Below, piece after piece: positions 2,942 to 37,066 of a stretch of DNA of 60,533 nucleotides (positions within the stretch are counted from its first letter, which is position 1; each line of letters opens with the position of its first letter). The DNA comes from an uncultured virus (IMG/VR IMGVR_UViG_3300023081_000006) (lineage: Duplodnaviria > Heunggongvirae > Uroviricota > Caudoviricetes): the IMG/VR virus record IMGVR_UViG_3300023081_000006; one strand, given 5' to 3'. The notes under the pieces were generated by a model. That model made no database searches, had not been told where the DNA came from, and saw only the letters and a program-made list of their open reading frames with translations. The translations under genes were made by a program, and so were the position numbers.

Positions 2942-5900
2942 TTAAGCCTGTAATGCAATAGCTCTAAGTTCTTTAATAGTAGGAACTTTTGCTGGTTGTG
3001 AGGATATTGGCACAATCTTCACTGCAAACTCTTTATAAGAGGTGTAAGTAATAGTTGTTTGACTTGCCGTTGCTGTAGCATCTACCGAAGCACCTCCTCC
3101 AGAAATTGTTACTGTTACGGTACCGCCTGTATATCCTCTTCCAGGATTTACAATGTCTATGCCTGTTACTAAGCCAGTTGCCGTATTAACATTAGCAACC
3201 GCTGTTGCTCCATAGCCATTCCCTGAGTGTTCTATTGTTACAGAAGGTTGTGAAGTGTACCCAACACCTGGTGTTGAAAGTGTTATACTATCAATAACAT
3301 CTACATCATACTCAAACTTTAAGCTAGTTGGATTTAATCCGTAAGAATCACCCGGTGCTTTTTCAGGTATTGAATAAACATAATCCTGTTGAGCTCCTGT
3401 AACGTTACTATTCTCTCTAGCTAAATCGCCTTGGAGTTGTAAAGGTATCCAGTATGCATCTTCAAATAATTCACCACTATCCTGTCCGTTTAAGAACTTG
3501 CCATATACTTTTACATCTGTACCTGCTGGTAGAGAGTTGGATAGATACACATTTAGATCTTCTGCATCTTGTCCTTCATCCAATATAACCTTCCTAGTTA
3601 TATATCTTGAACGAGCATCTCCACCGCTTCTTTGATCTTCATTGGTATAAACATCATCAATATCATTTTTAAATATTAATTGATTTAACTGTAAGGTATC
3701 AACTAATGGAGATACATTAGGATTGTTTGTGCTTAAAACTAATTTTACAGCAACATCTCTAGCATCTGCATTGTCTCCTTCAGAAGTGTAAATATTAGAA
3801 ATAGATCTAACCATTCTTCTTTCTAAAAGTTCCTCTGTTCTTCCCAGCTCAAACGCTGTCCAATTGGAATCCTGTGTTCCTGCAGTATCTCTTAATTTGT
3901 AATATGCTTGTACAGATGTGCCAGGTGGCTCTACTATAGATTTGGAAAGAGCTAATGCATCAATATATCTACTGTCAATGCTTTCTATTTCATCATTGGT
4001 GATATCAGATGTTCCAAACCAAGGTCCGATCATAATCTTATCTCCTGGTTCAAATGCTACGTCATTAGCCGCTCCACCGATATAACCTGTAAAGGAATTA
4101 ATAGACCAAGTTTCCACCTCAAGATATTCTCTTAATGGATGAACTTGTATAATATCTCCATTAACCACGAATATATCTACGGTTGCATCTTGAGTAGCAC
4201 CACCACCAGTAACGGTTGCTGTTAAATTGTCCCACCAAGCCACCGTTTCTGTTCCAGCGCTAATAACATTGACACCTGTCATCTCTCCTGTAACAGTATC
4301 AACTACCGCCTCAAGAGTAACTCCTTTATTTGTACCATCAAAGACAGACTCTACAGTTATAGTAGGCGTGCTAGTATAACCGGCACCTGGACTTGTTACA
4401 GATGCCTTAACAGTATGTATCATATGGCGTGGTTGGATAGAATTATACTTGCTAGGGTCACTAAGTTTTATATAATCTCTTGTCGCATTTCTTATGTGCA
4501 GTTCTCTACCTGAACCAACTTCAAATGAACACTTGTTAATTGCAAACATCATATCTAAAGACTGTTGAGGAGTCCAAGAAACATTATTGGCAGATGTAAA
4601 CATAATACCATTATGAGGTTGTTTAGCAATTCTTGTCTCTGTTCCTACTTGGAATTCTCCTAATTCTGAAATCCATATTTCCCAACCTGGGTTGTTGTTA
4701 GCGGGGATTGGAACAAAACAGTATTCTGTCTCGTTCAAAAGATAAACGGGCTTATTAAATCTAAACATCGACGGTACAAACTGTACTGCACCCCCCTCAG
4801 ATTCTTCAGACGGTGTAATCTCCCAGTTGCTCATAGTGCAACTTCCCAATACCTTCTCGCCAGGAACACCATTGACAACTTCTCTTATTTGTAAAGTTAC
4901 TTCTGCCCATTCATATGCTGGATCTGGGACAGTTCTAAAATATAGTTGAACGTCCCGTAAGAATACGCCCCCAGATTCTCCGCTTACTCTAAATGTTTGT
5001 GCTAGAGGATCTTGATATCCCCAGCCCCAACCGCGTTCTCCACCACCAATCCATAGGTCGTCCCATATTCTAATCGATAGATCTGGAATAACAAAAGACC
5101 AAGGTGTTTGAGCAGGCGCCGGAGGAATAACTGGCGGCTCTGGTGTGGCAGCTGGAGGTTCTGGTGTTGCTACCGGAGGCTCTGGTGTTGCTGGAGGAGG
5201 ATCTGCAGGCCCTGCAGGTGGGGGAACAGGCTGTTGGGTTGTCTTATTGTGTGCAACCATTCCGTTCGCCACGTAATTGTGCGAGCCATCTGTTTCAAAG
5301 TTATATACTTTTACTGTCTGCAGTCCCATCCATTGAATACTTGTAACTTCTTTTTCTGAAACTGTGCCATCAAGTTCAATAGAAATAATTCTATCACCAA
5401 CTTCTAACTTACTAACTTCTAAATTGTATTGTTCGTATACACCTATTTCTTTTGTTATGTCTGGATTAATAGATTTCCATCCATCTGTTGTCATAAATGG
5501 GTGACCGGGTGTTACACCACCAACGCCGTTAATTTGAAATATATCCTGCGGCGCTTCTGTGATATGGTGAACCTTAACTACAGTATTTACTGTATAGTGC
5601 TTACCTGCTAACCCACTTATACCTGCGACTTTATCCCCCGCTTCAATCTCTTCAATAGGTTTGACGCCATTCTCTGCCATTAAAATTTCTGTTCCCGCAA
5701 TAAAACATAGTGTGTGCGTTCTTGGAGGAGGATCAATTCTAGTCCAATCCAAATCTGGATCAAAGGTTGCTGGTTCAAAAATAACAGTTGTTACCGGCCA
5801 AGGTACATAATTCGGAATAGGAATAGGATTAGGAATAATCTCAGGAGGAGGTAAAGGAACACCGCCACCCGCCACATATTCATATACTTTATCTGTTACT

Positions 5901-31528: not shown

Positions 31529-31604
31529 TGGTAGGACTGAGTGGAGTTGAACCACTGACCTTCCGCTTATAAGACGGATGCTCTAACCATTGAGCTACAG
31601 TCCC
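31529..31604 (-). tRNA. tRNA-Ile(UAU)
   Basis: GGGACTGTAGCTCAATGGTTAGAGCA-TCCGT-CT-TAT-AA-GCGGA-AGGTCAGTGGTTCAACTCCACTCAGTCCTACCA; full cloverleaf with encoded CCA. Confidence 0.92.
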
Positions 31605-32375: not shown

Positions 32376-33284
32376 TTAGTCTTCTGCTAATTTAGAAAAG
32401 TAGGAAAGTGTATCATCTTCATCTGTATCATCAGAAACAGCTGATACTTTTTGAGCTGAGACAACCTTCTCCATGAAGTGATCATCTTCAGCATCGTCTG
32501 TAAACTTAGACACTTGTTCTGCTGTACCGACTGTAGCGCCTGCTCCTAGAACCATGTTAAGTTTTTTCTTTAACTCATCATAAGACTTAAAGTTTTTAGG
32601 ATCAACAATCTCTTGTAAAGAATGCTGTTTGTTCCAAATTGCTTCAATAGCCTCATCTGAATCAGCGATCGCTGTAGGTGCATCAAACTCAGACTTGTCA
32701 TAGTTTCTGTAACCTTCAACCTGACGAATCTTAAGTTTAAAGTTAGCGCCTTCCCAAAAATCAAATGGGTTCATAGGTGCTTCGTCTTCAAACTGCGGTT
32801 GCATAACATCTTTAATTTTGTCAAAGATCTTTTTACCGAATTTAAAGAGAAATACCTTGCCATTGTTTTCAGGATTGCCTGAATCTTGAACAACAAGAAT
32901 ATTGGCATAGTAAGCTAGTCTACGCTTTTGCTTACGTGCAACTTCCTTGTTTGCCTCTACACCACTGTTCCACAATTCACTGTTCAATTCAGAAACAGGA
33001 TCATTCTGGTTCAATGTAGTGAGAGAGTTCTCGATGTACCACTTTCCTGTAGGTCCTTGGAATCCATGATTCCATAAACGTACCCACGGAAACTCTTCAC
33101 CCTGGGAGGGAGGAAGGAACCTAATAACAGCATAGCCGTTTCCTGCTTTGTCTACTGTTGGTTTCCATTCCCTGTCATCACCAGAATTGCTCTGGCTAGG
33201 GTTTGCGATTTTTTCGACCTCGTTCATTAACTTGTCGAAACCGCCACGTGATTTACGTAGCTCAGATAGTGAATTAAAAGCCAT
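32376..33284 (-). CDS. gp32: Single-stranded DNA-binding protein gp32
   Basis: DKAGNGYAVIRFLP, GKWYIENSLTTL, GKKIFDKI, FDFWEGANFKLKIR, NYDKSEF, acidic tail. Confidence 0.97.
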   Translation of the reverse strand: MAFNSLSELRKSRGGFDKLMNEVEKIANPSQSNSGDDREWKPTVDKAGNGYAVIRFLPPSQGEEFPWVRLWNHGFQGPTGKWYIENSLTTLNQNDPVSELNSELWNSGVEANKEVARKQKRRLAYYANILVVQDSGNPENNGKVFLFKFGKKIFDKIKDVMQPQFEDEAPMNPFDFWEGANFKLKIRQVEGYRNYDKSEFDAPTAIADSDEAIEAIWNKQHSLQEIVDPKNFKSYDELKKKLNMVLGAGATVGTAEQVSKFTDDAEDDHFMEKVVSAQKVSAVSDDTDEDDTLSYFSKLAED

Positions 33285-33322
33285 ATATTTTCTCCTTGTA
33301 TAACGTTGTATAGCGTTGTATT

Positions 33323-33520
33323 TTAATTGTATTTATGCTTATGTTCTTCATAGTAAAGTTCATCAGCAAACTCATCATATAGTTCATCGGTTAAATCATC
33401 AACCGACTCTATATTATTTATAAGACCACGGTACTTATCAAATTTAGATTTTACCGTTTTTCCTACTTTTTTAATACGCCTCTCTTCTTCAGTTTGGCGT
33501 CGTGATTTGGACATTCCCAT
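33323..33520 (-). CDS. Hypothetical protein
   Basis: 65 aa, basic N-part and acidic C-part; between gp59 and gp32. Confidence 0.6.
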   Translation of the reverse strand: MGMSKSRRQTEEERRIKKVGKTVKSKFDKYRGLINNIESVDDLTDELYDEFADELYYEEHKHKYN

Positions 33521-35254: not shown

Positions 35255-35283
35255 ATTATAATACCTATTGGAGTATTAGTCAA
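35255..35283 (-). promoter_or_regulatory. Sigma70-type promoter TTGACT-N17-TATAAT (leaderless transcript likely)
   Basis: -10 ends 6 nt before the epimerase ATG; no SD. Confidence 0.75.
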
Positions 35284-35782
35284 ACGTTTTATAAAAAATA
35301 TGGTTGCCTACCTTTCCCGTTGTCTGCATATAATTAGCCCACCTAGGATTAGAATAATCGGCGTGGTAATGAGTTGCTTCATGTGCTATTGGTTCTTGTA
35401 ATTTGCCATGAATTAAGAGTTCAGCCAACATAAAGCAATGCTCCCATGTTTTCATATCAAGTATTTTTTCTGGCTTGCCGTCGCAATACCAACTAAATTG
35501 GCATCTATTCCTAGCTGGAACGGGATTCCCTGTTTTCCAACTTGGTTTATATTCTGCCTGGTAAACGACACCACAAACTGTATTAGGATAGTTACTAGAT
35601 CTAACTCTATTCATTGTAACCTGTCCTACTGCAATCTTTCCTCTTAGGGATTGATTTCTTGCCTCAAAATAAATGTTTCTTGCCAAACATTCTATTTCAT
35701 TATAGTTTACACTTGTAACCTGTGCCGAACTAGAACATGGCGCTGCTACTATTAGAATTAAAAATGATAAAAAATACTTCAT
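35276..35782 (-). CDS. SleB-like cell wall hydrolase (Hydrolase_2)
   Basis: CLARNIYFEAR, V.MNRV, PNTVCGVVYQ, CQFSWYCDG, ATHYHADY..P.W, HIFY; N-terminal signal peptide. Confidence 0.92.
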   Translation of the reverse strand: MKYFLSFLILIVAAPCSSSAQVTSVNYNEIECLARNIYFEARNQSLRGKIAVGQVTMNRVRSSNYPNTVCGVVYQAEYKPSWKTGNPVPARNRCQFSWYCDGKPEKILDMKTWEHCFMLAELLIHGKLQEPIAHEATHYHADYSNPRWANYMQTTGKVGNHIFYKTFD

Positions 35783-35803
35783 TTTTTTCTCCTTTCTAGA
35801 AAG

Positions 35804-35831
35804 AGGCCCGTTATGGTGGAGCCTATACCAT
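35804..35831 (-). other. H-type RNA pseudoknot, paralogous to the tmRNA post-tag pseudoknot
   Basis: ATGGT-AT-AGGCTC-C-ACCAT-AAC-GGGCCT: stem 1 ATGGT/ACCAT, stem 2 AGGCTC/GGGCCT. Confidence 0.6.
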
Positions 35832-35837
35832 TACTAC

Positions 35838-36056
35838 TTACTTAGACGAAACAAATCTATTAATATCATTTGCCATAACTTCAATTTCTTTGAAGCTAGG
35901 AAAAGCAGGCATAGATGGAAAATCTGGACTAAGCCCCGAATCTACATCTGCATGATATTTGGATATTAGATTATCTCGTTCCATGTGATACTGTTCAGTT
36001 AGCAAAGATTTTGCTTCAGTAAACATAGAAAATCTAAGTTCGAATGGATTTGACAT
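35838..36056 (-). CDS. Small conserved-type phage protein (start reassigned to ATG 36056)
   Basis: MSNPFELRFSMFTEAK...FPSFKEIEVMANDINRFVSSK; strong CAGGAGG SD preceded by a CA-rich tract. Confidence 0.8.
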   Translation of the reverse strand: MSNPFELRFSMFTEAKSLLTEQYHMERDNLISKYHADVDSGLSPDFPSMPAFPSFKEIEVMANDINRFVSSK

Positions 36057-36089
36057 AATAACCTCCTGTGTGTATGTGTGTGTCAAATT

Positions 36090-36403
36090 GGGCCCGTTTG
36101 ATAACAAGGTGGAACCCTTACCCCGTCTAGCTTAAGCAGCCAGAGAAAATACCTCATCGTTGGCATTTATTGTGTTTCATTACGGTTACGGTCGCTTGCA
36201 CACCGATCCTCCACTTTCCTACTGAGCACTTGTCGAACCTGTTCACCCCCATCAGATATGCACTTACCACAATTTGTTCCAATTAAGTGATACTTTTCTG
36301 TATCACCCTCTCTTACATTGTTACAAATACACAAATACATATCTGGTGGAGGTGGTGGGAATCGCACCCACGTCCAAATACCTTTTCAGTCCGTTTCATC
36401 AGA
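36090..36403 (-). ncRNA. ssrA: Circularly permuted two-piece tmRNA: acceptor piece ~36403-36344, intervening segment 36343-36251, coding piece from 36250
   Basis: GGAC-GTGGG-TGCGATT-CCCAC-CACCTCC-ACCA precedes GGGGGTG-AACAGGTTCGAC; acceptor stem with G3.U70; ATAAAT-GCC resume context; tag ANDEVFSLAA* at 36164-36132; pseudoknot after the tag; outer ends approximate. Confidence 0.92.
36167..36340 (-). CDS. Candidate minimal Bfd-like [2Fe-2S] protein overlapping the tmRNA
   Basis: MYLCICNNV...IGTNCGKCI matches the Bfd pattern MYxCxCNx...GxxCGKC; no SD, so translation is unproven. Confidence 0.5.
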   Translation of the reverse strand: MYLCICNNVREGDTEKYHLIGTNCGKCISDGGEQVRQVLSRKVEDRCASDRNRNETQ

Positions 36404-37066
36404 TTAGTTATTTATAACTTCAGTCTCATAACTGTCTCTAGCGTTGAGCAATTTTTCTACATAGTTATCACGTTTTTCAACATGCACTATTGGCTCTTCG
36501 CCTTCAACAGCCATAAGAATGACTGATTGAGAAACAGGTATTCCTGTTCTTTCCTCAAACATTATAGCATAGGCAGAGCATTGAATAAAATAATTTTCGC
36601 ACTGACTTCTGCTTTTTGGTTTCATTGACGTTTTAAAGTCAATTACAGATAGTTTACCATTATATTCTGCAATACAGTCAACCTGTCCTGCAAGACGTAA
36701 ATGATCACTATACATTTTTGCCTCGATTGCTCTGATATTATCAATATCATCTAACAAAGGGCGAAACTTACGAAACATTTCCTTATCAATATAATTGAGG
36801 TTTGTATCCTCAGTCAATTCATTATTAAGAATGTCTTCGCAAAGTTTGTGAATCTTTGTACCACGAGTTGTGGCACGTCTACTAATTTTATCTGCTTCTT
36901 TTTCGCCTATTCTTTTACGCCAAGCTTGAATGTATGGCTTAGACTTATGAGATAAAATAGTTGTAACAGATGGATATTGAGTCCCGGACGGAGTAACATA
37001 TCTCCGCCCGTTCTCAGTATTAACCTGTTTAAGTTGTGGTATCTCTACCAAATTATGTGTAAACAA
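36404..37066 (-). CDS. PD-(D/E)XK Cas4-like exonuclease
   Basis: YPSVTTIL, RGT.IH, AG.VDCIAEY.GKLSVIDFKTS, YFIQ..AYA.M.EE.TG. Confidence 0.88.
   Translation of the reverse strand: MFTHNLVEIPQLKQVNTENGRRYVTPSGTQYPSVTTILSHKSKPYIQAWRKRIGEKEADKISRRATTRGTKIHKLCEDILNNELTEDTNLNYIDKEMFRKFRPLLDDIDNIRAIEAKMYSDHLRLAGQVDCIAEYNGKLSVIDFKTSMKPKSRSQCENYFIQCSAYAIMFEERTGIPVSQSVILMAVEGEEPIVHVEKRDNYVEKLLNARDSYETEVINN
36409..36416 (-). promoter_or_regulatory. T4-type late promoter driving the tmRNA
   Basis: TATAAATA immediately upstream of the acceptor piece. Confidence 0.75.

Follow-up and report, generated by a model that had tools for sequence, protein, structure and literature searches.

What is a small protein gene doing directly behind the tag of a phage tmRNA, and why is it followed by what appears to be a second copy of the pseudoknot that precedes it? 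The question arises in a stretch of 60,533 nucleotides from an uncultured member of the Caudoviricetes (hereafter the window), the source genome of which is a phage record of 122.5 kb. Read from its gene content and its late-promoter motifs, the phage can be classed as T4-like. On the minus strand, the locus comprises, in this order, an exonuclease gene, a TATAAATA motif, a permuted tmRNA gene, an ORF for 72 aa and a cell-wall hydrolase gene. The original prediction allowed two answers: either the protein gene sits inside the pseudoknot chain of the tmRNA, whose coding piece would also be an mRNA, or the pseudoknot is reused as a signal at the 3' end. The reading that we favor, with somewhat better than even confidence, is that the ORF forms an optional cassette behind the tmRNA, in which a first knot (knot A) and a CA tract would drive translation and a second knot (knot B) would protect the 3' end of the mRNA.

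The tmRNA gene and its last pseudoknot

All the features of the window described here lie on the minus strand. The tmRNA gene has the permuted two-piece order (acceptor piece, intervening sequence, coding piece), as indicated by the full model of Rfam RF04321 (110 bits against a gathering threshold of 47) and by a concordant permuted call from ARAGORN. Just 5' of it lies the T4-type TATAAATA motif (36409..36416), of a late promoter type named in parts of PMC3014915, which would serve as its promoter and whose position is kept in a relative, L280. The acceptor piece (36344..36405; Rfam tmRNA_permuted and ARAGORN) has a CCA end and the G3-U70 identity pair of alanine, GGGGGUG pairing with CACCUCC ahead of the terminal ACCA. 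It is followed by the intervening sequence (36251..36343, from the Rfam alignment) and by the coding piece, which extends from G1 to the end of PK2 (36090..36250, from Rfam; the 3' end is putative). The tag frame, ANDEVFSLAA and a stop (36132..36164; ARAGORN and Rfam), has the resume motif and the hydrophobic end of tmRNA tags.

Knot A (36090..36124) starts 7 nt past the tag stop and is both the PK2 of the tmRNA and the 5' pseudoknot of the ORF leader. Two-piece tmRNAs typically have a PK1 and a PK2, one on each side of the tag, as described in parts of PMC3985003. When aligned to the Rfam family beta_tmRNA (RF01850; 80.5 bits, just under the gathering threshold of 84), knot A falls on the 3' helix. 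Its core occurs in at least 120 viral loci and stands directly after the tag stop in 92 of the 120 matches listed, and 96.5% of the cells are paired across 13 distinct copies. Since it aligns to the last helix of beta_tmRNA and follows the tag stop in most of the loci listed, knot A can be identified as the ordinary last pseudoknot (PK2) of this phage tmRNA type. The same PK2 pattern has six matches in the prokaryote genome collection, none of them accompanied by an ARAGORN tmRNA call. A tmRNA-type PK2 also lies 5' of the ORF in L484, a locus with only 305 nt of flank, behind an apparent decayed tag frame and with no Rfam tmRNA match.

The tmRNA belongs to a known class. Like other permuted two-piece tmRNAs (RF04321, and RF01850 for the beta form), which have been reported from Melnitz and about 50 aquatic phages in parts of PMC9004378, it combines the permuted order, the CCA, the G3-U70 pair, the LAA end of the tag and a pseudoknot after the tag. 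It differs from them beyond PK2: the hairpin that comes next in the Rfam beta model is missing, and PK2 is followed instead by a CA-rich leader, a gene and a copy of PK2. No terminator-like site was found between knot A and the ORF. SmpB was not found in the phage record, which, at 75% completeness, is not evidence of absence.

Among the matches listed, 64 clusters have a tmRNA of the window's knot type; the next element is the ORF in 9 of them, the hydrolase gene in 8 and something else in 47. L280 has a near-identical tmRNA whose PK2 is joined straight to the hydrolase leader, with no ORF. In the hydrolase tree, which is unrooted and from which gain and loss of the cassette cannot be read, three clades with strong support each place filled and empty loci as sisters. 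Since relatives without the cassette join PK2 directly to the hydrolase gene, the ORF is best described, as far as sequence comparison goes, as an optional mRNA cassette, likely co-transcribed with the tmRNA, and not as a fixed part of it. Recombination through the repeated knots or through flanking homology would add or remove it. The proposal of a gene inside the tmRNA knot chain thereby loses its necessity, the knot being the usual PK2, near-identical tmRNAs existing without the ORF and the ORF coming after only 9 of the 64 listed tmRNA clusters of this knot type, but such a chain could still occur as an unprocessed or long form. An association of the ORF product with the tmRNA, also suggested in the original prediction, gained no support.

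Leader and product of the ORF family

The predicted content of the space between the two knots is all present. A CA-rich tract (36068..36083), likely a translation enhancer given its counts in family leaders, is followed by a Shine-Dalgarno sequence, AGGAGG (36062..36067, read from the sequence), and by the 72-aa ORF (35838..36056), which belongs to a large unnamed phage family. The pooled loci of this family took in the best 80 of 419 relatives and, from a second set of at least 596, again the best 80. From 181 matches, 7 were dropped for short flanks or lack of a start and the remaining 174 gave 76 clusters at 85% identity, a sample of mutually related clusters that leans to close relatives and to one subfamily. 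All 76 clusters have at least two CACA in the leader, versus 1 of 127 control leaders. An upstream pseudoknot with a score of at least 24 is found in 37 of the 76, versus 3.9% of shuffles and 16 of 96 other native leaders (17%). These strong knots all end 26-44 nt 5' of the AUG (37/37) and have 26 different stem-2 arms. The 39 other clusters lack a strong upstream knot, and some of them have tRNAs, CA-loop hairpins or nothing clear.

When the element directly 5' of the ORF is classified by rule, it is a tmRNA in 22 of the 76 clusters, 30 have only a knot there, 5 a tRNA and 19 something else; in 15 further clusters, a permuted tmRNA lies at most 1.5 kb upstream with other genes between. The suspected linkage of the ORF to ssrA is found in other phages as well: at least 37 of the 76 clusters have a permuted tmRNA no more than 1.5 kb 5' of the ORF. 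In three loci where genes separate the tmRNA from the ORF (L421, L475 and L482), a different knot precedes the CA tract. The remaining loci are cyanophage-like, and most of them lie amid tRNA genes or before a wcaG RNA. One stand-alone leader knot, among 20 loci, passes the Rfam cut-off of TYMV_upPK, and further Rfam scans of such knots gave none at gathering level. The 5' knot and the CA tract can be regarded as a trait of the ORF family itself, which also holds where no tmRNA is adjacent.

Other structures were observed around these leaders. A hairpin with CA repeats in its loop replaces the knot before the CA tract in six loci (L451, L458, L460, L424, L461 and L415), beside a late-promoter-like motif. 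In L005, the non-tmRNA leader knot is preceded, at a distance of about 45 nt, by another pseudoknot-like element (2890-2960) that is related to it; a similar one is seen in L043, where it is further away, and in L046, L049 and L075, and the related region of L045 has no Rfam match at gathering level.

The protein family is widespread and diverged. The 72-aa ORF has 37 relatives at 50% clustering, and 2,790 of 3,079 candidates match its family in a profile search. Members show 25-60% identity, and dN/dS is 0.06-0.27 in 10 ORF pairs. The closest Atlas clusters are 99-100% viral and unnamed, the BFVD matches are uncharacterised phage proteins, and no family match was found in Pfam, PHROGs or PDB sequences. 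Among isolated phages, Synechococcus phages B3 and B23 and phage C48C1 have the gene, PA5oct and Paride match the family at weak E-values only, and the CA leader is present in 4 of the 4 isolated-phage loci retrieved. In the structure model (pLDDT 95), a proline-rich linker connects a long helix to a short one, and comparison of the model with solved structures gave weak matches (best Foldseek E 3.6; best Z 5.7, with rmsd 5.5 and 68 aligned). Net charge ranges from -7 to +1 in all 76 family representatives and is -4 in the protein of the window. Our guess is that the protein would most likely be an abundant late helical oligomer or adaptor, and not an enzyme or a basic RNA binder.

Several candidate features of the ORF were set aside. 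A fusion of the ORF to the C-terminal part of YchF (P0039) occurs on a single contig of 856 nt and is a probable chimera, and a MukB label on one of 10 clusters looked up was disregarded. An 89-aa extension through knot A, started by TTG, was rejected, as the spacer is closed or out of frame in most relatives. Readthrough of the tag stop into the ORF was attributed to chance: the window is open and in phase, yet the ORF is in phase in 5 of 22 tmRNA-adjacent clusters and the frame is open in 2.

The second knot and the 3' side of the ORF

Knot B (35804..35831) starts 6 nt past the ORF stop. The next gene 3' of the ORF encodes a SleB-like cell-wall hydrolase (35276..35782; PF07486, E 8.6e-24). 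Both knots have a stem 1 of 5 bp, a 2-nt loop, a stem 2 of 6 bp and a 1-nt loop, and they differ in loop 3, which has 10 nt in knot A and 3 nt in knot B. From one knot to the other, each stem differs by a single two-sided change (G-U to U-A; G-C to A-U) and, in addition, by a single one-sided change. The first claim of the original prediction, two like H-type knots with two-sided changes in both stems, is thus confirmed. The topology by itself was rejected as evidence, being at chance level (21 sites in the window versus a mean of 21.4 in 20 Markov shuffles), and therefore the case rests on sequence likeness and on relatives. These two sites are the only ones in the 122.5-kb genome to match both 15-nt cores with at most 3 mismatches each. 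A dispersed-repeat origin of the knots was rejected, since neither the genome nor the loci with the non-tmRNA type contain any additional copy. No curated Rfam family matches at knot B, and z-scores of single-strand folding, which cannot model pseudoknots, lie between -0.4 and +1.

The second knot is conserved in relatives. Across 11 distinct copies, 91.7% of its cells are paired, versus 21-61% in slid controls. Two-sided changes affect 4 of its 11 pairs, and its covariation score, which kinship can inflate and which rests on 5 cells, with one pair broken in 6 of the 11 copies, was reached by 1 of 500 shuffles. The tmRNA loop is lost in 9 of the 11 copies and the pairing is kept. Knot B can be described as a loop-shortened, pairing-conserved copy of knot A, devoid of the tmRNA-specific loop, and is a likely protector of the 3' end.

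In L210 and L261, two pseudoknots that belong to different tmRNA types stand in tandem just past the tag stop without an intervening ORF, and the second one in L210 has a short loop as in knot B. In the window, the Shine-Dalgarno sequence of the hydrolase gene is overlapped, directly past knot B (35803-35787), by a weak stem and by a palindrome of 12 bp, which may damp translation of that gene.

By inspection, the same knot is present at both ends of the ORF in 17 of the 76 clusters and belongs to three sequence types: nine clusters have the type of the window, one has another tmRNA type (L036), and seven have no tmRNA found in the locus. Within its loci, the non-tmRNA type of knot occurs only at the ORF ends, with two copies in 8 loci and the upstream copy alone in 3. 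The two copies are identical in L036 and L046. A strong 3' hairpin is found in 2 of the 17 knot-bracketed clusters versus 41 of the 59 others, a contrast whose independence is overstated by the kinship of the clusters, and in which the low hairpin score of the bracketed loci possibly comes in part from the knot occupying that region. A knot copy and a strong hairpin seem to be largely mutually exclusive 3' of the ORF, where knot B would stand in for the hairpin. Members of the family usually have some structure on either side of the ORF. Of the two answers allowed at the outset, reuse of the knot as a 3'-end signal is the better supported, given this replacement of a hairpin in relatives and, as a weak hint, the contig stops of two RNA runs described below. 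The hydrolase gene comes next after the ORF in 35 of the 67 clusters with enough flank. In L055, L063, L078 and L082 (around 3189-3290), a wcaG RNA lies immediately 3' of the ORF; it may be a 3' structure of the ORF as well as the leader of the next gene.

The RNA data are assembled contigs from one habitat and year, perhaps one campaign, and cannot show ends, strand or level; stretches of the hydrolase gene that they leave uncovered are no evidence of absence. Among the salt-marsh RNA runs listed, 15 of 21 share half or more of the words of the window stretch. In each of two runs (X14 and X15), one contig passes through the tmRNA, the ORF and knot B and stops with no loose end, at 35795 and 35789 respectively, that is 9-15 nt beyond knot B, which is a weak hint of a 3'-end signal. 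A contig of X1 spans the whole stretch, past knot B, and a 152-nt piece in X16 bridges the tag, knot A and the ORF start. In these four runs, contigs of other phages match at 36050-36125 with knot A or the CA leader only, which implies that relatives with the same elements occur in the same samples.

Competing explanations and known systems

In the scenario of an optional cassette, the late promoter would give a single transcript with both the tmRNA and the ORF, and tRNA-type processing would release the two tmRNA pieces. A 30S subunit or protein S1 would load onto the knot and the single-stranded CA tract, by analogy with ACA enhancers and tisB. Trimming in the 3'-5' direction, or weak termination, would halt just past knot B, leaving a stable ORF message and the hydrolase gene less read. 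ACA motifs are described as enhancers of translation in parts of PMC3879156, and the 5' pseudoknot and single strand of tisB as binding S1 and 30S in parts of PMC7708055. The leader of the ORF shares with these systems a pseudoknot and a single-stranded region 5' of the start, as well as ACA repeats beside the Shine-Dalgarno sequence. Unlike tisB as portrayed there, its ribosome site looks open and is near the knot; it has no known antisense partner and does not lead into a gene for a membrane toxin.

Several other scenarios may explain the locus. One possibility is that the tmRNA coding piece stays uncut after knot A, in which case one RNA ending at knot B would be both tagging template and mRNA. 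This is unlikely, and it is compatible with much of the cassette scenario. It could draw on the missing terminator-like site and post-PK2 hairpin, on the RNA contigs across tag, knot A and ORF in four runs, and on the position of knot B, which an exonuclease would reach first. Yet a two-gene contig does not show a single transcript, sister phages do without the ORF, which follows only 9 of the 64 listed tmRNA clusters of this knot type, and other genes intervene between tmRNA and ORF in 15 clusters. Similarly unlikely is a persistent coding piece, extending to knot B, that would be rescue template and mRNA and whose protein, as one of a family of thousands that would travel with phage tmRNA and tRNA clusters, would act on host translation or tagging. 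Alternatively, knot B could be a mere recombination scar, a functionless target duplication left by the entry of the cassette. The knots are indeed direct repeats around a cassette that is present or absent, and in L036 and L046 the two copies are identical. Nevertheless, most copies of knot B have lost the tmRNA loop and kept the pairing, with two-sided changes, and knot B substitutes for a 3' hairpin, which makes a functionless scar improbable. No more probable than such a scar is a role of knot B as part of the following gene, in which it would adjust translation of the hydrolase. The distance from the beginning of knot B to the hydrolase start, 45-57 nt, is like that of PK2 in the empty alleles, and the weak stem beyond knot B may cover the hydrolase Shine-Dalgarno sequence, but a knot copy also follows the ORF in loci where the hydrolase gene was not found next to it (L031, L036, L204 and the non-tmRNA type, some with short flanks). 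A known system, the genomic islands that enter ssrA by integration and duplicate its end (parts of PMC11915505), likewise has a cassette between direct repeats of a tmRNA segment. In the locus, PK2 and not the tRNA-like end is repeated, the insert of about 290 nt contains a single 72-aa ORF and no integrase, and the same gene is also bracketed by unrelated knots in phages without a tmRNA nearby.

Self-repression in the manner of T4 gene 32 is a further, rather doubtful candidate: the protein would bind the 5' knot and spread from there through the CA repeats to cover the ribosome site, with knot B as a second site. In its arrangement, the leader in this T4-like phage resembles the gene 32 operator as outlined in parts of PMC535899 and PMC3014915: an H-type pseudoknot at the 5' side is followed by a repeat tract free of structure and by the ribosome site. 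The leader motif is invariant despite the 25-60% identity of the proteins, and some relatives have CA repeats in hairpin loops. However, a host factor such as S1 would explain the invariant motif equally well, and the charge of the representatives (-7 to +1, and -4 here) argues mildly against RNA binding by the protein, as does, more weakly, its lack of likeness to any solved RNA-binding fold. The locus also departs from gene 32, in the form outlined there, in having CA and not UUAAA repeats and a second knot after the gene, and its predicted product is a small, acidic protein with two helices in the 72-aa model and not an SSB. The leader is thus similar and the protein different.

In a literature search that covered mostly open-access papers, neither the ORF family nor the knot bracket was found described. 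Parts of a 2010 review (PMC3014915) present the gene 32 knot as possibly the sole viral pseudoknot in translational autoregulation, and therefore a second and far more widespread knot-plus-repeat leader would be directly testable. A very common, unannotated gene family of aquatic T4-like phages would gain a conserved RNA signature, in which an invariant CA tract comes after a 5' pseudoknot and a structure stands at the 3' side, and the PK2 of a tmRNA would have been duplicated to serve a second time, as an mRNA element. For the end of the phage tmRNA and for the role of the protein, a natural control is offered by sister phages, some of which have the cassette and some of which lack it.

Two minor observations concern other parts of the phage. 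A tRNA-Ile(UAU) gene (31529-31604, minus strand), beside those of tRNA-Leu(UAA) and tRNA-Arg(UCU), could read AUA without lysidine modification. The gp32-like gene, identified from its translation, is located at 33284-32376, away from the ORF locus; its own leader (33284-33323, minus strand) has no evident pseudoknot and is also A/C-rich, with a repeated AUACAAC motif.
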